Of a stretch of 17,101 nucleotides of DNA, positions 221 to 16,998 are shown one piece after another (positions within the stretch are counted from its first letter, which is position 1; each line of letters starts with the position of its first letter). Source of the stretch: Candidatus Fraserbacteria bacterium (lineage in GTDB: Bacteria > Bipolaricaulota > Bipolaricaulia > RBG-16-55-9); assembly GCA_037442925.1 (NCBI GenBank), contig JBBIPG010000049.1, forward strand, positions 1-17,101, written 5' to 3'. A program made the position numbers and the translations under genes. The notes under the pieces are model-generated. The model saw only the letters and a program-made list of their open reading frames with translations. It did no database searches and had not been told where the DNA came from.

Positions 221-2635
221 TCAAACTTTCTGATAAATAGCCTCTTGAAAGGTCCCATCCCCATTACCCAAGAACACAGCTAGAGCATTATCTGCAAAGA
301 AAGTGGCTGTCACTAAGTCCGGATTCTTGTCCCCGTTAAGATCCGCGAGCGCTATAGCCCATGGCGCACCCCTTACCTCAAGCTTCTGCTGCTCTACGAA
401 GGTACCGTCTCCCAACCCCAGCAGCGCGGATACCGTTGACCCGAGGTCAGCCACCACAAGATCTTGCTTCCCATCGCGATTGAGGTCACTCGCAGATATA
501 GCGGACGGAAAAAGATCAACCATAAAGCGCAGGGGCTTTTGGAAAGTCCCATCTCCTTCACCTAAGAAGACAGAAATGCCGTGCATGAACTCGGTCACTG
601 CCAGATCTTGGAGGCCGTCAGCATTGAAGTCTGCTATGGCGAAGGAACGTGGTAGACTCATGAACCCTATCTCGGAGGACACTTCCAGGGCACCATTTTC
701 TTTCATAAGCAACACTACTAACGCGAAAGACGTGGTATTCAAAGCAATCAAATCGGGCTTCTCATCGCCATTGAAATCCTTGGCCCGCAAGACCTCAGGG
801 TCAAAGCCCATAGCCCAGCTCGACCCATCACTGAAAGTGCCATCGCCCTTGCCGTACAGCAACGCGACATTGTCGGCATGAGCAACAGCTAGATCTAGTC
901 TGCAATCATTATTGAAGTCATGAACAACAACATCCTGAGGTGGGCTCCTGACCTTGATTTTGCCTGTAAGCTGGAACCTCTCTTGTCCCTCTCCTAGGAA
1001 CACATCGACGTCATTAGAGCCCGAATTGGCCACTACAAGATCCTGTCGGCCATCCCGGTTGAGATCACCCATGGCCACCGTCATGGGTGCCTTACCCACT
1101 TCGAGGCTTACAGGTTCTTGAAAGCTTCCATCTCCCTTTGCAAAGAGGATGGATAGATTGCTTGCGTTCTGGTTGGCTACGACGGCATCTGGAATCGCAT
1201 CTTGGTTGACATCGCCAATAGCAAGGGAGTAAGGACCTCTGACAGTCGTGGGTGCAACCTCTATGCCATTGACTGCCAAGGGGTCTACGAAGGGATCTGC
1301 AGTCTCGGCAAAGATCCCGGTACAGAACGGTTCCTTCCTTTTCGGATCACGATCTTTGTTTTTCACACCGAAGAGGAAGGTCACCGTAGAATTCTCCTGG
1401 GGCCTACTTGACTGTCTGTTCGCTACAGCCAAGTCCCAACACCCATCTCTGTTGAAATCGGCCTTGGCAAGGGAGCTGGGGTTTGGCCCCACAGGATATT
1501 TCTCATTGGGTTCGCCACCCGGCCCAATTAGCTCGAATCTTAGACTGAAATTCCCTTCCTTCTGAGTACCAGTACTCTTATTCAAAAACACAGAGACGTT
1601 ATCTGTACCGGAGTTTGTAACAGCTATATCCTGATCGCCATCTCGATCAAAGTCCCCTAGTATGGCGGCAGTAGGCTCGTTACCATGAGTCTTTAACTTT
1701 ACTTGCGGTTGGAAGGTACAATCCCCATGTCCCAGTAGGATCGAGATATCATGCGATCCCTTATTGACGACGACGAGGTCTGGGATACCATCGCCGTTGA
1801 AATCAGGGACAACGGGGTAGAGCAATTCCGGGAAGATGAACTCCAGCCAGCCCCAGCCGAAGCTCTGAATGACATAGCTGGGTTCTAGCCCAACTTTCAC
1901 TGTTGCACAGAACTCAAACTTGGGGTCTTCTCTGCCTGTGCCTCGAAGGATGTGGATGTTGTCATCGAGTCCATTGCTCACAACCAAGTCTTGGATGGCA
2001 TCCCCATCGAGATCCAGAACAGCCACGGAGTTGGGCCTGTTGCCGACAAGGAATCTCTGATAAGGGGGTGGGAAGCGACCTGTATTGTCCCCTTGCAGGA
2101 CGAAGATGTCATCGGAGATCTGATCCACCACCACGACATCTTGATGCCCATCTCTAGTGAAATCTCCAACGGCCGCAAAGACCGGCTCCCCCTCTAGCTC
2201 AGGTATCTTAATAGGACTGTTGGGTCCCGGCTGAAATCGTAAAGTGCGTTTGCAGTCGATTCCTAGCAAGATCGAGATATCGCGGGAGGTCTCATTCGCT
2301 ACGACCAAGTCTTGGCAGCCGTTGCTGTCGAAATCTCCAACAGCAAGAGATATCGGCCCTTCTCCTACAGATATGAAGCTTATCCCGAAAGACACTGGGC
2401 CAACTGCACAAGCGGCTCCACCGCTCCATAGGATGGTAATGTTGTTTGAGCTGTGGTTGGCTACGGCCAAATCGGGAATGCCGTCTTTGTTGAACTCGCC
2501 TGCAACGACGGAACTGGGGAGAATACCTACCGGACAAGCGGGAAACGTGGGAAACTGAAGCGAAGTTGTTGCTCCTCCGCTGGACGTAAACAACACGAAG
2601 GCTAACACCATCGTGACTGAAATTCTCTTGTCCAT
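221..2635 (-). CDS. Secreted FG-GAP/VCBS repeat protein (probable double 7-bladed beta-propeller)
   Basis: Signal peptide MDKRISVTMVLAFVLFTSSGG; 14 D-F/L-N-x-D-G-x-x-D-L-x-V repeats with GDGTF turns; RBS AAGGAGAGG upstream of ATG. Confidence 0.92.
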   Translation of the reverse strand: MDKRISVTMVLAFVLFTSSGGATTSLQFPTFPACPVGILPSSVVAGEFNKDGIPDLAVANHSSNNITILWSGGAACAVGPVSFGISFISVGEGPISLAVGDFDSNGCQDLVVANETSRDISILLGIDCKRTLRFQPGPNSPIKIPELEGEPVFAAVGDFTRDGHQDVVVVDQISDDIFVLQGDNTGRFPPPYQRFLVGNRPNSVAVLDLDGDAIQDLVVSNGLDDNIHILRGTGREDPKFEFCATVKVGLEPSYVIQSFGWGWLEFIFPELLYPVVPDFNGDGIPDLVVVNKGSHDISILLGHGDCTFQPQVKLKTHGNEPTAAILGDFDRDGDQDIAVTNSGTDNVSVFLNKSTGTQKEGNFSLRFELIGPGGEPNEKYPVGPNPSSLAKADFNRDGCWDLAVANRQSSRPQENSTVTFLFGVKNKDRDPKRKEPFCTGIFAETADPFVDPLAVNGIEVAPTTVRGPYSLAIGDVNQDAIPDAVVANQNASNLSILFAKGDGSFQEPVSLEVGKAPMTVAMGDLNRDGRQDLVVANSGSNDVDVFLGEGQERFQLTGKIKVRSPPQDVVVHDFNNDCRLDLAVAHADNVALLYGKGDGTFSDGSSWAMGFDPEVLRAKDFNGDEKPDLIALNTTSFALVVLLMKENGALEVSSEIGFMSLPRSFAIADFNADGLQDLAVTEFMHGISVFLGEGDGTFQKPLRFMVDLFPSAISASDLNRDGKQDLVVADLGSTVSALLGLGDGTFVEQQKLEVRGAPWAIALADLNGDKNPDLVTATFFADNALAVFLGNGDGTFQEAIYQKV

Positions 2636-2884: not shown

Positions 2885-3232
2885 TTAGAGTAGGTCTAGA
2901 GCCAACCTCAGTCGCGCCTCCACTCCCCTCAAATCCCCATCCGTCAGCTTTCCCAAACGATAGCGCACTAACGCAGGCTCTAAAGTCGCCAGCGATGCCT
3001 TCACCACGGAAGGCGCAGAGAGCCCAGCCTGCCGCCAGTCCTGTAGATAGTAATCCATCTGCCCTCGGTGAACTGAGACTTGGCTGGTGATGGCCATCAC
3101 GATGATGTCGTGTTCACTGCGATTGTAGAGCGCGCTACTCACGACCAGAGCCGGCCGCACTTTGCTGGTCGTTACGTCAGCGAAAGGAAAGGGGACGAGC
3201 ACCACCTCACCGCGACTTGGCTTTCTTGGCAT
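2885..3232 (-). CDS. Type II TA toxin, PemK/MazF family endoribonuclease
   Basis: RGEVVLVPFPFAD...KVRPALVVS...MAITSQ...GLSAPSVVK; likely start is ATG 3232 (MPRKPSRG), overlapping the antitoxin 3' end by 26 nt. Confidence 0.93.
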   Translation of the reverse strand: MPRKPSRGEVVLVPFPFADVTTSKVRPALVVSSALYNRSEHDIIVMAITSQVSVHRGQMDYYLQDWRQAGLSAPSVVKASLATLEPALVRYRLGKLTDGDLRGVEARLRLALDLL

Positions 3233-3482
3233 GGCGTTTCTCCCAGTCATCCCACAGCTGCGCATCCACAGGATTGTCCCAGACGCGATTCAATGCGGAA
3301 GCTGATAGTTCCGTAAACGCCCTTCGGTCAGCTACGGCCCAGCTGAAGGTGGCCTGTTGGAGATAGCGTCGAACGGCTTCTCGGAAGAGTTCACTGCGGG
3401 AGCGCTTCTCCAAGCGCGCCAGCTGGTCCGCCTCTTCGAGCAACTCCTCTGGCAATGAGATGTTGATCACCTTCGATGCCAT
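3207..3482 (-). CDS. Ribbon-helix-helix (CopG-like) antitoxin
   Basis: MASKVINISLPEELLEEADQLARLEKRSRSELFREAVRRYL is a classic RHH; C-terminal SALNRVWDNPVDAQLWDDW resembles tails of PemK-partner antitoxins; RBS GGGGGTG before ATG 3482. Confidence 0.9.
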   Translation of the reverse strand: MASKVINISLPEELLEEADQLARLEKRSRSELFREAVRRYLQQATFSWAVADRRAFTELSASALNRVWDNPVDAQLWDDWEKRHAKKAKSR

Positions 3483-3519
3483 GCAGACACCCCCTAGTTT
3501 ATCTAAAGATTCAACAAAG

Positions 3520-3548
3520 ATTGTAGTTAGAGAGCGGATGACTGTCAA
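3520..3548 (-). promoter_or_regulatory. Sigma70-type promoter of TA operon 1
   Basis: Minus strand TTGACA-N17-TACAAT, with the -10 about 37 nt upstream of the antitoxin ATG; AAAGATT direct repeats at 3505 and 3516 overlap the -10/TSS. Confidence 0.75.
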
Positions 3549-3595
3549 TGATAAAGGGGCCATGGACCAGCACGATATTATTTCTCACACTGGGC

Positions 3596-3625
3596 ACACT
3601 ATAAGAGATGGTGTATAATACCTCT
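3596..3625 (+). promoter_or_regulatory. Probable -10 box and operator region of TA operon 2
   Basis: TATAAT at 3614-3619 flanked by AAGAG...CTCTT dyad and CACACT repeats (3586, 3595); no clear -35. Confidence 0.45.
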
Positions 3626-3642
3626 TGAAAGGGGAGAGAGCC

Positions 3643-3885
3643 ATGCCTGCCCGGCAAATTTCGGCCACGGTCGATGGCAAGCTGTACAAGGAATTCGAAG
3701 AGCTGCGATTGCAGACAGGTCACAAGAAGAGAAGTGAGGCTGTGGAGGAGGCCATTAGGTTGTGGATCAAGGCCCAAAGCGATGCCCTCATCGCTGAGGG
3801 GTGTAGAGCTTCACGAGAAGACGATCTCGCTATGGCAAGAGCTAGTAAGCAGAAGACCCTAAGAGCCCTCTCTAAAGACCTCTAA
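3643..3885 (+). CDS. Ribbon-helix-helix antitoxin
   Basis: MPARQISATVDGKLYKEFEEL...KRSEAVEEAIRLWI RHH plus ndoAI/MazE-like tail LIAEGCRASREDDLAMA; RBS GGGGAG before ATG 3643; 3 nt before the toxin. Confidence 0.85.
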   Translation: MPARQISATVDGKLYKEFEELRLQTGHKKRSEAVEEAIRLWIKAQSDALIAEGCRASREDDLAMARASKQKTLRALSKDL

Positions 3886-3888
3886 ACG

Positions 3889-4230
3889 ATGCCCGGAGAC
3901 TCGCCCCTACGTGGAGACATCTACCACATCGACTTGCCAGCCCCTGTGGGGCCACACTACGCAGTTGTGATTACAGCAGATGCCATCAACCAAAACTCCG
4001 ATACCGTTCTCGTGGCTACAATCACAACAAAGCGTCTGGACAGAATCTACCCTCATGAATTCAAAGTCCCGCGCGGGCTGCTCCCACAGCCTTCTAAGGT
4101 TAAATGCCAGAGCATAATAATGGTTGAGAAAAAGGAATTGACTGCCAAGAACTACGTCGGCACAATCGACAAGCAGGATATGCAGGGCTTGGATCTTGCG
4201 TTGCTGAAAGCACTCGATCTCTGGATTTGA
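3889..4230 (+). CDS. Type II TA toxin, PemK/MazF family
   Basis: LRGDIYHIDL...AVVITADAIN...VLVATITT...GLLPQPSKVKCQSI...LDLALLKALDL follows the MazF fold pattern. Confidence 0.9.
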   Translation: MPGDSPLRGDIYHIDLPAPVGPHYAVVITADAINQNSDTVLVATITTKRLDRIYPHEFKVPRGLLPQPSKVKCQSIIMVEKKELTAKNYVGTIDKQDMQGLDLALLKALDLWI

Positions 4231-4240
4231 CAGTTGCCAA

Positions 4241-4269
4241 TTGCCATGCGCTCCCCTTCGCAGTATCAT
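4241..4269 (+). promoter_or_regulatory. Sigma70-type promoter for the sigma-like gene
   Basis: TTGCCA-N17-TATCAT, 38 nt upstream of ATG 4308. Confidence 0.55.
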
Positions 4270-4307: not shown

Positions 4308-5471
4308 ATGAACAACGAGGAGGCACTACAGCAACGCGAGCTGATCCGCCATCTGTCTCTGGAGTTGCTCCGCGCATGGGGCTTCCACAGCGAGCAGCTC
4401 GAACAGCTCTTCAACGGCCAAGATGCCCAAGGCCGATCCCGCCAGCTGACGGATCTCGAAGACGCCGTGCTCGAAGCGTATTCAGAACTCTGGCAGAAGC
4501 TCCAGAACGAGCAGATTCGCGTGATCTGCCCAAAGACCGTCCGCTATGTTCTGATCGATGCCCTGCGTTGCCGTGGGTTGGATAGAAAACCCTTCACTAC
4601 TCAAGAGCTGCTCAACGGGATTGCTAAGAGCCAGAAACCCGAGACGCGAAACCGCTACCTCAGCTGGGCCAAGTATGAACTGCAGGACGAACTCAAGACT
4701 CGCTTCGCCACGCTCTTCAACACATCTAATCACACTTCTCTCGAAAGTCTCATGGATTATTTTCTGGCCGAGTTCGTGCCACGCCAATACGCTGAACTGA
4801 AAAGTTCTTGCTCGAAATGCTCACCCCTTGATCGACTGTGCACAGCTTTTCTCAAGTCTGAAGGCGACCTTCGCCGAGCATCCCGCTATCGAGCACGGAT
4901 CGTTCCCATCTGCCCGCGACTCGTCTTCTACGAGGAGGCTCGCCACGAGCTAGAAAGCCGCGCATGGGCGTCATTCGAAGAGCAACCTGAATACAAGGCA
5001 CTCATCACTCTCGAGCGTCTGCGATACCAAGATCAACTGATTCGTTGCCAGCGCCCGGACGATGAACTAAGCCGCTATTTCGTGGATCTGCGCGACCCGA
5101 CGGAGCAGCGACGCTTAGAAATTTGCACGATCTTCGCCCATCTGAAGCGTGAGTCGCGTCGCTCGCCGGCAAACTTGAAAGCGTACATGATCTACGCCTT
5201 CAGTCATTTCCCAGCGGTCGGGCGAAGCCAACCACCCCCGTGTATGCCCTTGGAGTGTGTGACACTCGATATGATCCAGGGATGCGAGTTCACGTGGGAT
5301 GAAGTCTGCCGTCGTTTCCCCGGCGGCCCACAACCCGGCGACTACACGACCAAGCGCCGCATCGAGCGCGATATCCTTGCCCTTGCCCGAGAGTTAGGGT
5401 TCATACATGATGAAGAGAACCCAGAGAGAGGAGCTGGCAATGCCCGCGAATCAGAAGCCAAACGGACATGA
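4308..5471 (+). CDS. Hypothetical protein, probable highly divergent ECF sigma-factor-like protein with a large central insertion
   Basis: aa 49-65 DLEDAVLEAYSELWQKL and aa 79-87 RYVLIDALR resemble ECF region 2; aa ~327-362 EFTWDEVCRRF...TTKRRIERDILAL resembles region 4 HTH; immediately followed by a zf-HC2 gene. Confidence 0.6.
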   Translation: MNNEEALQQRELIRHLSLELLRAWGFHSEQLEQLFNGQDAQGRSRQLTDLEDAVLEAYSELWQKLQNEQIRVICPKTVRYVLIDALRCRGLDRKPFTTQELLNGIAKSQKPETRNRYLSWAKYELQDELKTRFATLFNTSNHTSLESLMDYFLAEFVPRQYAELKSSCSKCSPLDRLCTAFLKSEGDLRRASRYRARIVPICPRLVFYEEARHELESRAWASFEEQPEYKALITLERLRYQDQLIRCQRPDDELSRYFVDLRDPTEQRRLEICTIFAHLKRESRRSPANLKAYMIYAFSHFPAVGRSQPPPCMPLECVTLDMIQGCEFTWDEVCRRFPGGPQPGDYTTKRRIERDILALARELGFIHDEENPERGAGNARESEAKRT

Positions 5472-6062
5472 GTGTGAGTCTTTCTTGAAGCCAGCGTTCA
5501 GAGGGGAATCGCCCCCGCGCCGCGCTATGCGGGGCATCTCACCACAGAGCTGATCGGGGCATACGCAGCTGGCGAGCTGGACGAAGCGGACAAGCTGAGC
5601 GTCGCTGCTCATCTCAACAGTTGTGCCCAATGCCTCAATGAAGTGAATGAGTTACGCACCGCCTGGGAGCACCTGACGGACCGGCTGAGCGCCGCTCTGC
5701 CGGAGCCGGATGCTCTTTTTGAAGAATCGCAGAAACTCGAAATCGCTCGACAAGCCAAGGGATTTCTAGCTAGACATCAACCCGAGACACTTGAGCTTTT
5801 CGATGAGATCTGGGGATTACTGAGTGCGAAGCCACTTCGCAAGATCGCACGCGCTCGGCCTCAAATGGTGCGTGGTGAACTGTCTGGTGGGCAAATCGGC
5901 GTGACCGTCTTGGCCTCGTTGGCTGCGATCTTAGAGAGCGAGCAGGTACGACGCTTGAGTGAAATTCCAAGCTCACGCCTAAGAGAACTCATCGCTCAAA
6001 CTACAAGGGAGTGCGGCCTTTCTCCTGAGTGGGCTGAGAAGCTAGAGGCGTATCTCGTCTGA
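5440..6062 (+). CDS. zf-HC2 (zinc anti-sigma domain) protein, frameshifted near 5500-5535
   Basis: The frame of ORF 5643..6062 extends upstream as GHLTTELIGAYAAGELDEADKLSVAAHLNSCAQCLNEV (HxxxCxxC) without an ATG/GTG/TTG start; an AGGAG-led ATG at 5440 is in another frame and stops at about 5551-5553. Confidence 0.75.
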
Positions 6063-6065
6063 TCA

Positions 6066-7721
6066 CTACGATAAGTACAAGAGCGGCGCCGCCCACGCTG
6101 GATCTTCCCAGTCAAACGCAGTGCCTACGGCCAATCTGGCTCTTCGCAAGGCCTCCGCTGCGTCACCCAGCTTGGCAAGGGCTTGATAGAACGTAAGCGC
6201 CAATTCTCGCGCCCCGCGATCACTCACAGGCCAGCGCATCCCGATGACACAGGGAACGCCACTCTGCACGAACGCATCCGCCAATCCAGCCAACGCGACG
6301 TGAGAATGCCCTGTGGCCGAACCGCTCTCGCAGGAATTGAGAAAGATGAATTTGAGTCCGCATTCTTGAATTAGGCGTCGCAGCTCCTCAGCACGCAGTT
6401 TACGTCCTTGATTCAACACGAGATGGCTGGCACTGGCCAACTCCGGATCGTGATGCGAATGGCCGGAATAGTGAATGGCATCAAATGCACCCATCTGAAG
6501 TGTCTGGATGATCTTCTCTTTCGTAGCTTCTTGTCCCAAAAGAACTTCAACATCGATGGCGAGATCTTTTGTTAGCACATCATGAATCGCTTGAGTCTCC
6601 ACCAGAGCTTCGTCCAGATCGCTCTCCGGAACGATGATTAAGACGCGCTGCACAGGTCCAAAAGACTGTGAGAACTCGGTGGCTTGAATCGGTGTGCGTG
6701 CCAGGGGCAAGAGCAAGGCCAGAAAATCTTCGCCGTTGTGAAGCAACTCCCAAGGGAGCGCGCTGGTTTCGCCTTCGACCTCAATGCGAAACGGTCCTTG
6801 GGGATGAGCATCGAGCAGGGAGGTGAGGTAGCCATGCGTGTCTTTAGGAATATAGAGACCATATAACTCGCGCCCCAGCTGGACCAGGCGTTCGTGTAGA
6901 TCACGCCCCACGGCGTGGCGCTCCGGGGTTCCTCGCCGCGTACTGAAAGCGCTTCCTGCACATGCAAGTTTCTCGAAAGATGAAATCAACCGGCCTCGTT
7001 CTTCTGGGCTTATGCGGACGGTCTCCTGTCCCCGCCGCGGGCGTGGAGCGTTCGTGTGAAAGCGAATCAAGGTTTGGTCTCCCGCTTTGAGGATGCTGAG
7101 CAACGCCGTGGCTCGAGGTCGTTCTACAGCCGCAGTGTGAGATGTCTGGGTGCGAATTTCGAGGTGTTTTCTCAACCGTTCGCGCTGCTCGGACGTGGAC
7201 AGCAAACCAAGCAGTTCATCAGGAGGATCATGAGAAAGTCGTTCGGCCGCGCGCCCCAAATTGCCACACAAAGCATAGAGCGTCTCTTGCCATAGGCTCT
7301 GACTAAACCCAAGCCAGAAGTTCATCCACACTCTAGAAAGCGGCCGAAGACGTGCCTGGACTATCAATTCCTGTCCATCCGTATGGGAATTCACATCGAG
7401 TTGCCAGGCGATGCCAATGGGTGGGAACCGAGCTGAGAACCTTATCACCAAGCTCCAGCCGCCGCGCTCCGGTTCTTCTAGAGATGCTGAGAGCGTCTTC
7501 CATTCAACCCTGAGTCCCAAAAGCCTTCCCCAGTACACCCCTTCACCAGTCTGAGACAGCTCAAGCGAGGGATCAATCAGAGATAGTGCAATATCCGGAT
7601 GGAGCACTGCAAACTGAAAATCATCTTGACGTGCTTGGAAGTGCCAACTACGGACCTCTTGCGTTCCAGCGACCGAGCGCTGCGGATGACGCACTCGCGG
7701 CTTTTTGGATGCAGCCTCCAT
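6066..7721 (-). CDS. CHAT-domain (caspase-like) cysteine protease with N-terminal SRPBCC/START-like domain
   Basis: ALPWELL, AIHYSGHS (catalytic His), FIFLNSCESG (catalytic Cys), GLADAF, GMRWPVSD, FYQAL, WAAPLLY; RBS GGGGAG; N-terminal ~165 aa show a helix-grip-like pattern. Confidence 0.92.
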   Translation of the reverse strand: MEAASKKPRVRHPQRSVAGTQEVRSWHFQARQDDFQFAVLHPDIALSLIDPSLELSQTGEGVYWGRLLGLRVEWKTLSASLEEPERGGWSLVIRFSARFPPIGIAWQLDVNSHTDGQELIVQARLRPLSRVWMNFWLGFSQSLWQETLYALCGNLGRAAERLSHDPPDELLGLLSTSEQRERLRKHLEIRTQTSHTAAVERPRATALLSILKAGDQTLIRFHTNAPRPRRGQETVRISPEERGRLISSFEKLACAGSAFSTRRGTPERHAVGRDLHERLVQLGRELYGLYIPKDTHGYLTSLLDAHPQGPFRIEVEGETSALPWELLHNGEDFLALLLPLARTPIQATEFSQSFGPVQRVLIIVPESDLDEALVETQAIHDVLTKDLAIDVEVLLGQEATKEKIIQTLQMGAFDAIHYSGHSHHDPELASASHLVLNQGRKLRAEELRRLIQECGLKFIFLNSCESGSATGHSHVALAGLADAFVQSGVPCVIGMRWPVSDRGARELALTFYQALAKLGDAAEALRRARLAVGTAFDWEDPAWAAPLLYLS

Positions 7722-7746
7722 TTTAGGGACTCCCCAATCCCGTCTG

Positions 7747-7814
7747 ATAATAAGACAATCTTGCTCGATGTGTCAAATCCCCAATTGACAGCCTCCGAGG
7801 TAAACAACTACTAT
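7747..7814. promoter_or_regulatory. Back-to-back divergent promoters for the CHAT and TolB-like genes
   Basis: TGTCAA-N8-TTGACA (7771-7790); minus strand TTGACA-N18-TATTAT, plus strand TTGACA-N18-TACTAT. Confidence 0.5.
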
Positions 7815-7826
7815 GGAGAAAATCAT

Positions 7827-9095
7827 ATGCTGCCATCACAAGTCGTGGGAGCTATACTGCTTGTTGGCTTGGGGTTGGCTGGAGGAGTGTTGCTCTGCCT
7901 CGCGGTGGGGCAAGCGTACTGGGCATCTACCGCATTACGTGTGCAGCAACAGTTGCAGCGAGGTAGCGATGCGAAGACGGTCAGTGGCCGACGCCTCTAC
8001 GGTCTAGCCGCCGTGTGGCTCGGATGCTCTGCTCTTGTAATCGGTGGAGAAGTCTTCGCGGTCAAGGCCGTGTGGGAGCGCTATTTCGCACCGCTCCCGT
8101 TGCACCGCGTGATCGCCTACGTATCAGACCAGAATGGCAGCAACGATATCTGGCTCATGGACGAGTACGGCCGCACGCGGGCGCTGACGTTCGATATGGC
8201 CAATGAGCGACAACCCCGCTGGTCGCCCGACGGCCAATGGCTCTTATTTTTGTCCGACCAAGCAGGCAATGATGACATTTTCGTCATGAATGCCGAGGGC
8301 ACTATGAAACAAGCACTCACACAGACCCCCGAAAGCGAGGATTGGATCTCCTGGTCGCCCGATGGCAAGGCCATCTTGTTCACACGAGGACGACTCACGG
8401 ACAATCAACTCTGCATTCTGAGCGTGGATATGATCCGTCAAGTGGCCACGGGCGAGAGCTGCATCTTCATAACAGAAGGGAAGATCAATAAACCCAGCTT
8501 CTCCTCGGATGGCAGGCAGATTGTGTTCAACTTGGGCCATGATGGCTGGTTTCGCCTCTGGATCGTGGGTAGCGATGGGACGGATGCTCACCCGCTCGAC
8601 TCCGCCGCACAGAGCGGGATTGCCTCTTGGTCGCCGGATGGGAAACGCATCATCTACCGGCGGGCCGCCGACTACAACAAACCTTCTGATTTACAGATCA
8701 TTTCTCCTGACGATGGAGCTCTGCGTCATGTGCGTCATATCGAGGCATCGCAAGTGCAAGCCAACTGGTCACCTGATGGTCAAAGACTTTACTTCACGAG
8801 CGATCCCAGCGATCCGCCGCTGGCTGACATGGGTCGATTGGGCATTGTAAGCGCCGATGGCTCCAAGTTGATCTGGCTCGACGACGGTGAGAACTGGGTC
8901 TACGGGCAAGCGCAATCCTGGCAGATTGAGAGTTGGGATGAACACAATAGAATCGTTTACTCTCACAAAGAGGACGGACAATACGATCTTTACTTAATCG
9001 GCTCCGACGGCTCCGATCGCACTCCATTGACAGACACACCCGCGAATGAATTCCACGCCGTCTTCCGCCCCGTGCTGCCGCTCAAGCAACGGTAA
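7827..9095 (+). CDS. Membrane-anchored TolB-like (PD40 repeat) beta-propeller protein
   Basis: Two N-terminal hydrophobic helices, then IAYVSDQNG..DIW, repeated WSPDG/FSSDG motifs and LTD/LTQ linkers; RBS GGAG before ATG 7827 (the 7599 start overlaps the CHAT gene). Confidence 0.88.
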   Translation: MLPSQVVGAILLVGLGLAGGVLLCLAVGQAYWASTALRVQQQLQRGSDAKTVSGRRLYGLAAVWLGCSALVIGGEVFAVKAVWERYFAPLPLHRVIAYVSDQNGSNDIWLMDEYGRTRALTFDMANERQPRWSPDGQWLLFLSDQAGNDDIFVMNAEGTMKQALTQTPESEDWISWSPDGKAILFTRGRLTDNQLCILSVDMIRQVATGESCIFITEGKINKPSFSSDGRQIVFNLGHDGWFRLWIVGSDGTDAHPLDSAAQSGIASWSPDGKRIIYRRAADYNKPSDLQIISPDDGALRHVRHIEASQVQANWSPDGQRLYFTSDPSDPPLADMGRLGIVSADGSKLIWLDDGENWVYGQAQSWQIESWDEHNRIVYSHKEDGQYDLYLIGSDGSDRTPLTDTPANEFHAVFRPVLPLKQR

Positions 9096-9098
9096 AGA

Positions 9099-9182
9099 AT
9101 CTGTCAACGGATCTAGAGCCGATTAACGGATCATGTAGCTTGCAGCCATCCGCTCACTGTTCTTCTCCATCCGTTGACAGAT
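9099..9182. repeat. Perfect 14-bp inverted repeat with internal repeated boxes
   Basis: ATCTGTCAACGGAT (9099-9112) / ATCCGTTGACAGAT (9169-9182); extra copies TTAACGGATC (9123-9132) and CATCCGCTCA (9147-9156). Confidence 0.85.
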
Positions 9183-9247
9183 CCCACCAGGTGTCAGGTT
9201 TCCCCCGAATTCGGCGGCAGTCTTATTTTGGGGAGGTACTCTCAACG

Positions 9248-10084
9248 ATGGCCCTAAAAATCCAGCTTTTCGGGGAGCTGCGCGTCTGGCGGGAGGGTGA
9301 AGAAAAGCCTGTCGAGAAACAGGAGTGGCTCGATCGCAAGTCCATACAGCTCTTTGTGATCTTGGTCAGCGAGCCGGGCCGTGTCTTCCACAAAGACGAG
9401 TTGATGGAGTGGCTTTGGCCGCGCTCCGATCCGACACAGGCCCAGACTTCCCTACGCAACCGCATCAGCCGCTTGCGCCGACTCTTGGAACCCAAACTGG
9501 CTAAGGGGATCAGGTCCCACTACATCAAGACTTGCCCCGGGGGCTATTGTTTCGAGCCCGAAGCAGAGTACGAGATCGATATCCTCTCTTTTGAGGCATC
9601 GTATCGAGAAGGGCGAGCCTCGGAGCAAGCAGAGCAGTGGCATGAGGCCATCGCCCACTACACACGCGCGGCAGCCCTCTACAAGGGTGATTATCTCAGC
9701 GAAGAGCGCTATGAAGCGTGGGTTCTAGCACGCCAAGAGCACTGGAAGCGTATCTATTTGGAAGTCCTCGTGCACCTGGCCGAGTGCTGGGCGCGGGTGG
9801 GGCTATATCGAGAGGCTGTGGAGCACGGTGAGCAAGCGATCGAGATTGCCCCCACATGGAGCGAGACGATGTATCGTCAATTGATCAGTTACTATGCCCA
9901 TCTAGGCGACCGTGCTGGGATGATGCGAACCTATGCGCGCCTCGAGCAGATGCTGGCTGAGTATTTCCACGCGGAGCCCTCGCCCCAGACGAAAGAGCTC
10001 ATTGAGAAGATAGTAGACACATGCTCTATTTCCCGAAGACTTCGAGCAGGATGCGCACGACGATCAATACCCAGCCCACGATGA
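9248..10084 (+). CDS. SARP-family transcriptional regulator (OmpR-type wHTH plus BTAD)
   Basis: LKIQLFGEL, DELMEWLWP, SLRNRISRLRRLL, GGYCF, ID...F, ALYKGDYL, EPSPQT; RBS GGAGGT before ATG 9248. Confidence 0.92.
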   Translation: MALKIQLFGELRVWREGEEKPVEKQEWLDRKSIQLFVILVSEPGRVFHKDELMEWLWPRSDPTQAQTSLRNRISRLRRLLEPKLAKGIRSHYIKTCPGGYCFEPEAEYEIDILSFEASYREGRASEQAEQWHEAIAHYTRAAALYKGDYLSEERYEAWVLARQEHWKRIYLEVLVHLAECWARVGLYREAVEHGEQAIEIAPTWSETMYRQLISYYAHLGDRAGMMRTYARLEQMLAEYFHAEPSPQTKELIEKIVDTCSISRRLRAGCARRSIPSPR

Positions 10085-10340
10085 CCACCAACCAGGCCAG
10101 CTTCTTAGCCACTTCTATCAGAATGAGAAAGAGCGTCAAGAGGATCAAGAATCCCAAGGGATCGACGAGATCTGTGGGCATCTGATAGCCGACGATGTAC
10201 TCAATGAGCCCTGTGATGAGTTGCCCCGCCCAGTGGGCCAACGTGTAGAGAAATGTCAGCAATTGATCGAAAAGCTCTCGCAGACGGCTCTCAGCCGGCG
10301 GTTCCTCCTGCGCGCCAAGCCAGATCCAGGTTGTGTACAT
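10026..10340 (-). CDS. Small integral membrane protein
   Basis: Two to three hydrophobic segments (DPLGFLILLTLFLILIEVAKKLAWLVVIVGWVLIVVRILL); overlaps the BTAD gene 3' end by 59 nt. Confidence 0.75.
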   Translation of the reverse strand: MYTTWIWLGAQEEPPAESRLRELFDQLLTFLYTLAHWAGQLITGLIEYIVGYQMPTDLVDPLGFLILLTLFLILIEVAKKLAWLVVIVGWVLIVVRILLEVFGK

Positions 10341-12973: not shown

Positions 12974-13049
12974 TGGTGGGCCCAGCAGGACTCGAACCTG
13001 CGACCTTCTGGTTAAAAGCCAGCTGCTCTACCACCTGAGCTATGGGCCC
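12974..13049 (-). tRNA. tRNA-Lys (anticodon UUU)
   Basis: GGGCCCATAGCTCAGGTGGTAGAGCAGCTGGCTTTTAACCAGAAGGTCGCAGGTTCGAGTCCTGCTGGGCCCACCA, 76 nt with encoded CCA. Confidence 0.98.
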
Positions 13050-13400: not shown

Positions 13401-13490
13401 CCTCATCTCCTCCTGCAAACGGGCTGCGTTGAGAGCGGCTACCGGTTGACGTATCGAAGAGAATGGATTAAGCTCTACGCAGGAGAGCAT

Positions 13491-15182
13491 ATGGGATGCG
13501 GGGTTGTGGGAGTTCTGCCCTTTCGTGAGGGGGATACGCGTGAGGCTTTGGGGCTGACCATCGAGCTCCTCGAGGACTGCCGCAACCGCGGAGAAGACGG
13601 CACCGGGCTCTTGCTCTACGGCCACGGGCTCTTCCCTCAGCTCTTCCACTTGGAGAAGTGGTTCGGTTCGGCCTACGAGATCCCCAAGCACCTCTACGAG
13701 TTGAATTTGTCGCACCACCCAGAGGTTCTCCTCGGGCATACCCGCTACGCGACCCGTGGAGTCATCTCGGAAGAGAACATCCATCCCGTTTGGGCCAGCT
13801 ATTCCGCGCAAGGGCGCGACGTCAATCTCTTCTTGGTGATGAATGGAGAGCTCTCGTTCACCGAGCGGTGGATCCGCCAAGCGCAGGATGTGGGCATCAA
13901 CCTGCACGGCTCTACAACAGACACGACGGGTTGCGCAGGCAAGATGCTGGGCCTCTATCTGGACTTGCACGATTTGGGGGCTGCGCTCACAGAGTTCTAT
14001 AAGCAGGCATTCCCTTTTGGGGGCTTCACATTCTTGGGTCTTCTCATCGACAACGAAGACGCCTTCTTCTTCTACGTGCGAGATGGCATGCGCCCGCTGC
14101 ACGCGGCGCAACCGGAGGGCTTTTCGATCTTCGTCTCTGAGACCAAGCCTCTTACGAGTCTCGGCCTCAAGTATGATGAGATCGATGTCATCCCACCGGG
14201 CACGGTAGGCTTCTACTCGCTGGCCCAGAAGCGCTGGGAGCGACTCGACATGAATCGCATCTTGAAAGGTCGCGCCAGCCGCGGCGAGTGCTCGTTTGAA
14301 TACGCCTACTTTCAAGAGCCCAACTCCATCATGCACGGGCGGAGCATGGATGAGTTACGAACGGAATTTGGCAAGGCTGCTTGCAAAGAGCACCCGCCTC
14401 CAGATGATCATGAGGAGCATCGTATCATCGTCGCTCCCATCCCCAAGTCAGGCATCAGTGCCGCCTATGGCTACGCCGAACAGGCTCTTAGAGACGACAG
14501 AGACGTGCACCTCGGAGCGATCGTGCTGCGTCGCAGCGGAGCAGACACGCGCTCCTTCTTAGGGGAGGGGCGCTCTGAAATTGTCCGGCGCCTGAAGAGA
14601 AAGTTCGAGATCAACGTTCAAGAGGCCAAAGATGCCGTCGTGATCAATGTGGATGACAGCATCGTGCGCGGGAATGTCTCGGCGTGGATTGCCAAGATGG
14701 AGCGAGATGCCGGTGCGAGAGAAGTGCGCTTCGTCTCTGCCTGGCCGCCCATCATTGGACCTTGCTACGCAGGGATCGCCATCGATGTGGGCCAGCCTCT
14801 CGCAGAAATCGTTGCCGAATTCGACCCGCCAGAGCTCGTTGAAGATCACAGTCCTTTAGAGGAAAAACTCAAGGAAGGCTACGAGCATGAGGAATTCGGA
14901 GTGACTCAATTCGACGATGTCGGCTACGTCAGTCCTAAGGGCGTAACGGACATCCTCAAGAAGATCATCCCAGGAGATTTCTGCACGGGTTGTTTCTCTG
15001 GGCTGTACAACTACATCAACCCACTCAACATTGGGGGGAAACCCTACCGCTATGCGAAATGGCTGGATGAGTTTATCCGGCTCAACGGGGTAGAGATGCC
15101 CGAGATCAAGGAGGTTCCGGATGTACCTGCCGCAGTCATGCTCAAGGAGCAAGCAGGGACAGCGAATCGGAGTAAGAGCTAG
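13491..15182 (+). CDS. purF: Amidophosphoribosyltransferase-like protein (divergent PurF, 4Fe-4S type)
   Basis: MGCGVVG N-terminus, GHTRYAT, RDGMRPL, CSFEYAYF, PIPKSG, PRPP-binding VDDSIVRG, PCYAGI, FCTGCFSG; AGGAG RBS before ATG 13491. Confidence 0.85.
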   Translation: MGCGVVGVLPFREGDTREALGLTIELLEDCRNRGEDGTGLLLYGHGLFPQLFHLEKWFGSAYEIPKHLYELNLSHHPEVLLGHTRYATRGVISEENIHPVWASYSAQGRDVNLFLVMNGELSFTERWIRQAQDVGINLHGSTTDTTGCAGKMLGLYLDLHDLGAALTEFYKQAFPFGGFTFLGLLIDNEDAFFFYVRDGMRPLHAAQPEGFSIFVSETKPLTSLGLKYDEIDVIPPGTVGFYSLAQKRWERLDMNRILKGRASRGECSFEYAYFQEPNSIMHGRSMDELRTEFGKAACKEHPPPDDHEEHRIIVAPIPKSGISAAYGYAEQALRDDRDVHLGAIVLRRSGADTRSFLGEGRSEIVRRLKRKFEINVQEAKDAVVINVDDSIVRGNVSAWIAKMERDAGAREVRFVSAWPPIIGPCYAGIAIDVGQPLAEIVAEFDPPELVEDHSPLEEKLKEGYEHEEFGVTQFDDVGYVSPKGVTDILKKIIPGDFCTGCFSGLYNYINPLNIGGKPYRYAKWLDEFIRLNGVEMPEIKEVPDVPAAVMLKEQAGTANRSKS

Positions 15183-15819: not shown

Positions 15820-16998
15820 ATGCCGAGTCCAGCTTATGAATCAAAGGAAGACGAATACTGGTACAATGTTTCCCCTCAAGATGACCTACCATTGGCAGGC
15901 CAAGTAGATCTTGACATTGATCTAAAATCAGTATCCGAGTTCTTTCTCAGGCTTTCTGCTGCAACTGATGAATCCTCAGCTAAGAGGATTATCTTAGAAA
16001 ACCTTGTTTCTAATCCCCTCATTTTCAGTTATGGCAGACAGTTTCTTGGGCTGAGTGACAAAAGAGCCTATCTAGACCTTTCCTATCTAGCCAGTCGCAC
16101 ACCGCACCCTACGCAACCCACAAGCCTTAGTGGGTGTCACCCATGGACACTTACGCGCCATCCAATGGCATTCTTTCTTAGGTTGTTGAGTGGTTCTCAA
16201 GGCAAGCAAGTTCAAATTGCTACTGCGGATATGATAGCCACCTATCTAATCCAGCAGGGCCTATATCAGGCGGCACAGGGATTCTCTGGGATGTCACAAG
16301 CCTTGATGGAGTTGGTCTATACGCGCCTTATTGCTCCAAAGGAGTATCAGCAAAAAGCAGCTAAACGACGTGGACACGGTTGCGAAGCCGCTCTAGCTAC
16401 AGTTCTAGAGAAATCTGGTGTGGATATTCTTCCGCAGAATAAAGCTACAAATCCAATGGGAGCAAGTGATCCTCACCTCAATCTAGAAACTATGACGGTA
16501 TCAGATCGGCAAGCTGGCACAACCCATGCCTTCGATATGCTGATTCTGTCCAGAGGTCGCGTCCGGGTGGCGATTCAATCTCTGATACATACATCAGATC
16601 CAGGCCAGTATGGTGTGGATAAGAGCAACGAGACTGTCGCTATAGCCCAGAAGATTCGAAAGTGGAACATTGAGCACAAGTCCAAGATGCCTGTTGAGCT
16701 TTGGGGACTACTGGATGGAGTTGGATTTAGTGAGAACAAATCAGACACTATTAATAAACTGCTGAGGGAGTTTGACTATTTTATTCAGCTTAGGACGCTT
16801 TATAAAGCACCGCTCCGATTACATTTACTAGGCCTGATGACGGTAAAGGGAATTCGCTTTTCGGAATACTACGACACAGAAGACATTTCTGCTATAAGAG
16901 AGCGATACATACCAAATGATGTGGAAGTCATTGCAGATGTTGCAAGAATACCGAGCGATTGGGTGCCTATTCAGGGTAGTGTAGAGTTTGGTGTGTAA
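15820..16998 (+). CDS. Hypothetical protein, probable PD-(D/E)xK-fold type II restriction-endonuclease-like nuclease
   Basis: RGHGCEAALATVL helix, AFDMLIL...VAIQS, GQYGVDK, GLLDGVGF arrangement resembles DpnII/MboI-like nuclease cores; visibly AT-richer codon usage than neighbours. Confidence 0.55.
   Translation: MPSPAYESKEDEYWYNVSPQDDLPLAGQVDLDIDLKSVSEFFLRLSAATDESSAKRIILENLVSNPLIFSYGRQFLGLSDKRAYLDLSYLASRTPHPTQPTSLSGCHPWTLTRHPMAFFLRLLSGSQGKQVQIATADMIATYLIQQGLYQAAQGFSGMSQALMELVYTRLIAPKEYQQKAAKRRGHGCEAALATVLEKSGVDILPQNKATNPMGASDPHLNLETMTVSDRQAGTTHAFDMLILSRGRVRVAIQSLIHTSDPGQYGVDKSNETVAIAQKIRKWNIEHKSKMPVELWGLLDGVGFSENKSDTINKLLREFDYFIQLRTLYKAPLRLHLLGLMTVKGIRFSEYYDTEDISAIRERYIPNDVEVIADVARIPSDWVPIQGSVEFGV

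Follow-up and report, generated by a model that had tools for sequence, protein, structure and literature searches.

The 17,101-nt contig JBBIPG010000049.1 (hereafter the window) carries a real and conserved cassette of five genes, encoding a sigma-like protein, an anti-sigma factor of the zinc-binding (ZAS) type, a caspase-like CHAT protease with a START domain, a membrane beta-propeller and a BTAD regulator. We consider it an evenly balanced proposition that this cassette is a switch, in which a hydrophobic ligand activates the START-CHAT protease, the protease cuts the ZAS anti-sigma and the sigma-like factor is released. The window is the whole of contig C49 from a genome of 2.07 Mb that is 94% complete, and the host most likely belongs to the Bipolaricaulota, judging from homologues labelled Candidatus Fraserbacteria or Bipolaricaulia.

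All five genes are present in the same order and orientation in two further loci (L014/L024, which lie on one contig, and L025), with protein identities of 45-69%, and the co-occurrence of homologues expected by the original prediction is thereby confirmed. The flanks of these two cassettes are unrelated. A contig of read run X5 also holds the cassette intact in order and orientation, with flanks of its own; it covers positions 4317-10200 and departs from the window immediately before the sigma gene begins, and the position of the BTAD gene is kept in this contig as well as in L014/L024 and L025. Protein matches on contigs of identical length (9271, 5679, 11153, 7044, 31769 and 3879 nt) point indirectly to another six pairs of sigma and CHAT or of anti-sigma and CHAT. 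Values of dN/dS range from 0.11 to 0.33 in 13 of 15 pairwise comparisons, two being saturated and dS being near saturation throughout. A full-length START-CHAT protein and an orthologue of the propeller (E<=1e-40) each occur in two of the 184 genomes of the phylum, and these are the same two genomes. Therefore, we take the cassette to be rare, accessory and co-inherited.

The gene layout proposed earlier was reproduced. The 387-residue open reading frame (ORF) runs from 4308 to 5471 on the forward strand, the anti-sigma start (ATG 5440) overlaps its end, the convergent stops of the anti-sigma (6062) and CHAT (6066) genes are 3 nt apart, and 105 nt separate the ATG of the CHAT gene (7721) from that of the propeller gene (7827). 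The propeller assignment is borne out by PD40/TolB matches and two N-terminal hydrophobic segments, and by the positive-inside rule the propeller is probably periplasmic. The next gene (9248-10084), overlooked in the original prediction, matches Pfam BTAD (E 7e-21), Trans_reg_C and TPR_2, and its TPR hits contradict the claim that the window is free of TPR repeats. Coordinates of all the features are presented in Table 1.

The 387-residue protein was earlier described as resembling a sigma factor of the extracytoplasmic function (ECF) type. Sigma2-like and sigma4-like parts are predicted in the right order, with moderate support from profile-profile and fold comparisons, but the protein has no Pfam or NCBIfam match and therefore lacks the detectable sigma2 and sigma4 domains by which an ECF is recognised. 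In profile-profile comparison against 28 canonical ECFs of the same phylum, the N-terminal domain of the family aligns to sigma2.2-2.4 with E 4.7e-5 at a probability of 68%, and its C-terminal domain to the helix-turn-helix (HTH) of sigma4.2 (E 0.0078), while CHAT profiles used as controls reached E 0.24 and 0.19. Both the sigma2 and the sigma4 scores exceed those of 60 of 60 column shuffles. Among the 16,199 ORFs of the host genome, the best match of the family profile outside the family is an ORF recognised by Pfam as an ECF-type sigma (E 0.12). An RpoD profile failed to pick up the family, the 387-residue protein gave nothing significant in PDB sequence or Foldseek searches, and an Atlas search returned, as a lead only, a cluster with 47% Sigma70_r2 at 0.92. 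Taken on these sequence comparisons, the family is likely sigma-like. Its form departs from the compact ECF (group 4) of about 200 aa with a short linker, since about 165 aa, including a helical insert of about 100 aa, separate the two sigma-like parts. One comparison hinted that the insert is a second sigma2; this was rejected for want of hhalign support, and a weak sigma4.2-like match of the insert (E 0.037) is a lead only.

The family comprises 83 representatives at 50% identity and is matched in 54 of the 184 phylum genomes. Among 55 family loci, the gene is fused in 15 (one of them broken and cut by the contig end), divided over two neighbouring genes in 16 and limited to the C-terminal domain in 24. 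A gene with the ZAS motif lies directly downstream in all 31 long-form loci, which is the ECF trait of a cognate anti-sigma gene in that position, and in 13 of the 24 C-terminal-only loci; the loci counted are kin and not independent. Since the family is invisible to Pfam and yet so widespread, ECF censuses may miss a lineage-wide group which includes natural split forms.

It is improbable, in our estimate, that the 387-residue protein is derived from a sigma factor and no longer functions as one, acting instead as a decoy, an anti-anti-sigma or a DNA-binding regulator. Such a loss of function would fit the lack of a Pfam sigma match in all 12 aligned family members, with only one of 73 others reaching Sigma70_r2 (E 0.01), and the occurrence of sigma4-only members in most genomes of the order. 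Two features of the cassette clade also weigh against a working sigma factor, namely the lack of about 25 residues together with the aromatic FxxYL of the family at sigma2.3, and a long branch in the family tree. On the other hand, both sigma-like domains are predicted and in order, the gene is under purifying selection along its length, and functional ECFs typically have such an obligate ZAS partner.

Several variants of the family were observed. The sigma4-only genes, about 150 aa in length, are monophyletic, all 24 rows forming a single clade supported at 100/99 (examples are G000:C52:8102-9110, L023 and L155-L174), and no sigma2 half was found adjoining them or elsewhere in G000; their product could be a half-sigma acting in trans or a ZAS-controlled HTH regulator. 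The split forms, with genes of about 257-280 and 138-165 aa (L006, L017, L019, L136-L138 and L145-L154), fall in two separate clades and keep the ZAS gene in 16 of 16 cases. Two family sigmas have an additional domain at the N-terminus, EAD7 in one and an XRE HTH in the other (P0047, P0051). Loci with membrane anti-sigmas often adjoin a gene for a secreted M10 metalloprotease or S8 subtilase (downstream in L015, L020 and L141, upstream in L017), which would be site-1 proteases or regulon members.

In the second gene of the cassette, the HxxxCxxC motif noted earlier is supported by Pfam zf-HC2 (E 9e-8), and its H, C and C are invariant in 32 of 32 aligned family anti-sigmas. A frameshift was overlooked in the original prediction. 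The anti-sigma gene is frameshifted in the window strain and intact in the relatives, where the N-terminal His...HxxxCxxC ZAS domain is continuous; in the window genome this domain is severed from its start codon. The zinc-finger frame has no ATG, GTG or TTG upstream of the motif. In L024 and L025 the anti-sigma start follows a conserved AGAGAGGAG at the position equivalent to ATG 5440 of the window, which lies in a frame other than that of the zinc finger and yields a peptide of 37 aa (5440-5553) with 50% identity over 24 residues to the N-terminus of a relative's anti-sigma. The change is a +2 frameshift near 5513. Contigs of four runs were compared at the locus, of which X2 and X3 do not span 5513. 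The X5 contig (42.5 kb, about 90% alike) lacks the 2 nt, while the probable source run X1 matches the window at this site with identical letters, no gap and a depth of 15. An assembly error is thus disfavoured, with the limits that X1 is not independent of the assembly and that contigs drop rare alleles.

Rescue by a restart is unsupported, as CTG 5550 would lose the first zinc-ligand His and GTG 5643 the whole motif. A single read-through protein of sigma and anti-sigma, whose frames coincide over TGA-GTG-TGA, was rejected because the relatives have separate genes with a conserved ribosome-binding site and ATG at the equivalent of 5440. With the anti-sigma gene frameshifted, it is therefore improbable that the window copy acts as a switch. 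In this strain it has probably ceased to function, either with the sigma unrestrained or with the cassette starting to decay, and the loss predicts constitutive output or early cassette decay.

The third gene encodes a protease with a strong Pfam CHAT match (E 9e-37), and its His/Cys dyad (H421 and C464), characteristic of caspase-like proteases, is intact as claimed. The 'ligand domain' of the original prediction turns out to be a predicted START/SRPBCC domain with the helix-grip fold, in which an antiparallel sheet curves about a long C-terminal helix. The protein has no TPR and is encoded separately from the anti-sigma. No relative of the START-CHAT protein was found in viral contigs, nor in plasmids at E<=1e-20. 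Neither a START-CHAT fusion nor the sigma-like family is described in the literature searched, coverage of which was incomplete, notably for subscription papers, and the words 'caspase', 'peptidase' and 'CHAT' do not occur in the main text of a 2026 review of bacterial START proteins. An orthologue in Aminicenantes (L176:6527-9724) lies directly before a gene for a ferredoxin-FAD (4Fe-4S/FAD) oxidoreductase of the amine-oxidase/desaturase type, a neighbour which may suggest that the ligand is a lipid or an isoprenoid; in 301 genomes sampled from the class of L176, START-CHAT was found in L176 alone.

The link between protease and anti-sigma is suggested by the C-terminal part of the latter. 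A membrane anchor is assigned to 24 of the long-form anti-sigmas, which number 31, from hydropathy in 22 and from homology in 2; of the others, 3 are short or apparently truncated, 3 are of the cassette type and 1 is that of L139. In the CHAT-linked anti-sigmas, a soluble C-terminal domain containing ARPQxVRG takes the place of the membrane anchor, and this domain is limited to them. No other stretch of 10 columns has as many invariant positions as the motif, with 8, the zinc motif coming next with 5, but the permutation p is only 0.054. ARPQxVRG is a candidate Arg/Gly (R|G) cleavage site or docking site. RG as a universal mark of CHAT substrates was rejected on L179 and L235, where it is not conserved. 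A trypsin-like protease gene, a family sigma and a soluble anti-sigma are found together in L139 (L139:4466-8037), on a branch separate from the cassette clade. This anti-sigma contains three ZAS-like repeats together with RG motifs and a tail rich in beta structure, and the protease has no apparent signal peptide; the locus may represent the switch in a parallel form that uses a serine protease.

Some observations count against this link. The CHAT protein has a hydrophobic-R-G loop of its own, whose R263 and G264 are kept by all 15 homologues; the loop is also found in L176. A full-length START-CHAT gene exists in L176 with no sigma or ZAS gene nearby, and the L176 genome gives no match to the cassette profiles. 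The anti-sigma of L016 looks soluble, and neither of its two scanned neighbours is a protease, and the LRG of L179 is not kept in L235. Some of these points bear on an explanation which we regard as rather unlikely, though less so than a non-functional sigma: the sigma/anti-sigma pair is real, and the START-CHAT protease is a co-regulated or parallel component with another substrate (itself, the BTAD regulator, the cytoplasmic loop of the propeller or proteins in general). The L176 protease without the sigma family would suit it, the R263-G264 loop could be a self-processing site, and the M10/S8 proteases beside other family loci may be mere regulon members. It accounts less well for CHAT-linked anti-sigmas that have no membrane anchor and carry an invariant motif, or for the housekeeping-type promoter of the CHAT gene, which is unlike a sigma target.

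In the switch as we propose it, the ZAS domain of the soluble anti-sigma would hold the sigma-like factor until a hydrophobic ligand (lipid, quinone or isoprenoid) in the START pocket activates the CHAT domain. The protease would then cut the anti-sigma in its C-terminal domain, probably after Arg (ARPQxVR|G), the ZAS fragment would be degraded and the sigma freed. Housekeeping-type promoters are predicted for the sigma, CHAT and propeller units, and therefore the protease should be present before any signal. The GTCAA core of the CHAT -35 box is conserved in 3 of 3 loci; this sequence in the divergent region was considered as an ECF site and rejected, since it is the -35 of the sigma70-type promoter. 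The conserved element that precedes the BTAD gene is a candidate alternative-sigma promoter or operator, and the freed sigma may drive its targets through it, the BTAD regulator then forming a second tier of transcription. As a genome-wide regulon mark the element was rejected, since its exact form occurs once in the genome and does not precede six BTAD paralogues. The membrane propeller may serve as an envelope-side input or as an accessory.

The cassette likely serves to signal the state of the envelope or of lipids, and not to defend the cell against phages. A defence role, as suggested earlier, finds no direct support, the relatives lying amid housekeeping or envelope genes and PADLOC giving only generic CHAT matches. 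We think it very unlikely that the cassette acts against phages or by abortive infection, with a protease that kills or arrests the cell. The patchy distribution (2 of 184 genomes) and variable flanks, the two PemK/RHH toxin-antitoxin pairs adjacent in the window genome, the defence-linked nature of the closest solved CHAT structures and partial PADLOC matches to BovA and SAVED-CHAT could all be cited for it. However, these matches are confined to the CHAT domain, with none in the other 7 proteins scanned, the toxin-antitoxin pairs are not found beside other copies, and the cassette contains neither a cyclase gene nor one for SAVED/CARF, Cas or an obvious effector. No Cas7-11 or Cas10 was found in the window or among the cassette genes, Cas10 not having been searched elsewhere in the genome; the Cas3 match of the genome is on another contig, outside the window.

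The arrangement of sigma, anti-sigma and CHAT genes is less unusual than the original prediction implied, as it recurs in DdvS/DdvA, Csx29/Csx30, ECF54 and the loci L179 and L235, where canonical ECF, soluble ZAS and CHAT genes lie together. The cassette resembles Csx29/Csx30/CASP-sigma, the DdvA/DdvS model and SAVED-CHAT, and is a member of none of them; these comparisons draw on parts of the cited texts. In type III-E systems, Csx29 (a cytoplasmic TPR-CHAT) cuts a loop in the C-terminal domain of Csx30, a soluble anti-sigma, and relieves inhibition of the sigma factor (PMC10028731). The cut lies away from the sigma-binding N-terminus (PMC10028731), and by analogy the same mechanism may apply to the cassette. 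Csx29 is activated by Cas7-11 and target RNA via its TPRs, whereas the cassette has no Cas gene; Csx30 does not belong to the ZAS type and CASP-sigma is evidently an ECF, unlike the ZAS protein and divergent sigma-like protein here (PMC10028731). DdvA of Myxococcus xanthus (PDB 8ROT) joins a ZAS domain, a transmembrane helix and a periplasmic TPR-CHAT in one chain, while in the cassette two convergent genes encode anti-sigma and protease as separate soluble proteins, with a START sensor in place of TPR (PMC11506125). In addition, the cassette sigma is not a canonical ECF like DdvS and no CBASS/CRISPR island is attached; in its working, the proposed switch may be likened to the model put forward for DdvA/DdvS (PMC11506125).

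SAVED-CHAT, of the SAVED-CHAT/PCaspase/PCc-sigma system (PDB 8TL0), resembles the START-CHAT protease in architecture (10.1101/2023.06.23.546230). Its SAVED domain binds cA3 and its substrate is a second caspase, not an anti-sigma, whereas the cassette has a START helix-grip pocket and neither a second caspase nor a cyclase (10.1101/2023.06.23.546230). In ECF54 and ECF+caspase+DUF1822 neighbourhoods, a conserved CHAT or caspase neighbour has been proposed as regulator, as in the cassette (PMC7826278, PMC8195603). ECF54 is actinobacterial, without an anti-sigma and with TPR-CHAT (PMC7826278), and the available portions of the two texts describe neither START nor the sigma family of the cassette (PMC7826278, PMC8195603). 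The SigO-RsoA pair of Bacillus subtilis has sigma2 and sigma4 on separate polypeptides, like 16 of the 55 family loci; the window gene is fused, the split relatives keep the ZAS gene, and the likeness is one of organisation (PMC7826278). Specificity for Arg has precedents in the caspase of type IV Thoeris, which is bacterial and caspase-like (10.1101/2024.10.24.620036), and in separase (10.1101/2024.10.24.620036, PMC11506125), although craspases cut after Met or Leu (PMC11506125).

What is new in the cassette are the START sensor, the Pfam-invisible sigma family and the ARPQxVRG motif, the general arrangement of sigma, anti-sigma and CHAT being already known. We tentatively suggest, with less confidence than for the switch as such, a one-component lipid receptor-protease, in which START would bind a membrane lipid, quinone or isoprenoid, directly activate the caspase-like protease to cut ARPQxVR|G and free a sigma of an unrecognised family. 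If true, a caspase gated by a small molecule would lead to transcription here, with no need of nucleotide messengers or CRISPR. The CHAT activators known from the sources consulted in part are RNA-guided complexes, cyclic oligonucleotides and unknown periplasmic cues, and a START-gated CHAT would add hydrophobic ligands to these inputs. The proposed circuit consists of three proteins, all soluble, with a named candidate cut site.

Table 1. Features of the cassette and its surroundings (nucleotide positions in the window unless residues are given).
Feature	Position	Strand	Basis or remark
Predicted divergent ECF-like sigma, 387 aa	4308..5471	+	ORF list
Sigma2-like part	residues 1-93 of 387-aa protein		profile and fold comparison
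Sigma4-like part	residues 260-368 of 387-aa protein		profile and fold comparison
ZAS/zf-HC2 soluble anti-sigma gene, frameshifted	5440..6062	+	Pfam, relatives, read-run contigs
HxxxCxxC zinc-binding motif	5610..5633	+	sequence; Pfam zf-HC2
ARPQxVRG motif, anti-sigma C-terminal domain	5853..5876	+	invariant in 8/8 homologues
START/SRPBCC-CHAT caspase-like protease, 551 aa	6066..7721	-	Pfam CHAT
N-terminal START/SRPBCC (helix-grip) domain, residues 19-165, predicted	7227..7667	-	
Catalytic H421	6459-6461	-	invariant in 15/15 homologues
Catalytic C464	6330-6332	-	invariant in 15/15 homologues
TolB-like (PD40) beta-propeller, two transmembrane segments, 422 aa	7827..9095	+	PD40/TolB matches, hydropathy
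Winged HTH-BTAD (SARP-like, TPR-type) transcriptional regulator, 278 aa, fifth conserved gene	9248..10084	+	Pfam
Sigma70-type promoter-like site, sigma gene	4241..4269	+	TTGCCA-17-TATCAT, 10/12 consensus
Sigma70-type promoter-like site, CHAT gene	7747..7776	-	TTGACA-18-TATTAT, 11/12, best of the region
Sigma70-type promoter-like site, propeller gene	7785..7814	+	TTGACA-18-TACTAT, 10/12; similar site in L024
Conserved non-coding element GGTGT(C/T)AGGTT ... CGGC, upstream of BTAD gene	9190..9219	+	3/3 loci

Other genes of the window lie around the cassette. The left flank (2885-4230) holds two divergent pairs of a ribbon-helix-helix (RHH) antitoxin and a PemK toxin, absent beside the other cassette copies seen. 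A gene for a membrane protein of 104 aa (10026-10340, reverse strand) is convergent with the BTAD gene, and its homologues adjoin a sigma4-only gene in L021 and L022, two genomes of the same family, which may be a coincidence. An ORF of 392 aa (15820-16998, forward strand) with lower GC content (about 46-48%) has no Pfam, NCBIfam or PADLOC match; we presume from its appearance that it resembles a restriction-endonuclease-type gene. The sole match in an Rfam scan of the window is a tRNA outside the cassette (12977-13049, reverse strand). A divergent PurF-like amidophosphoribosyltransferase with a TTG start is encoded at 13446-15182 (forward strand; 108 bits against an NCBIfam cut-off of 350), and a secreted protein with FG-GAP repeats, also outside the cassette, at 221-2635 (reverse strand).

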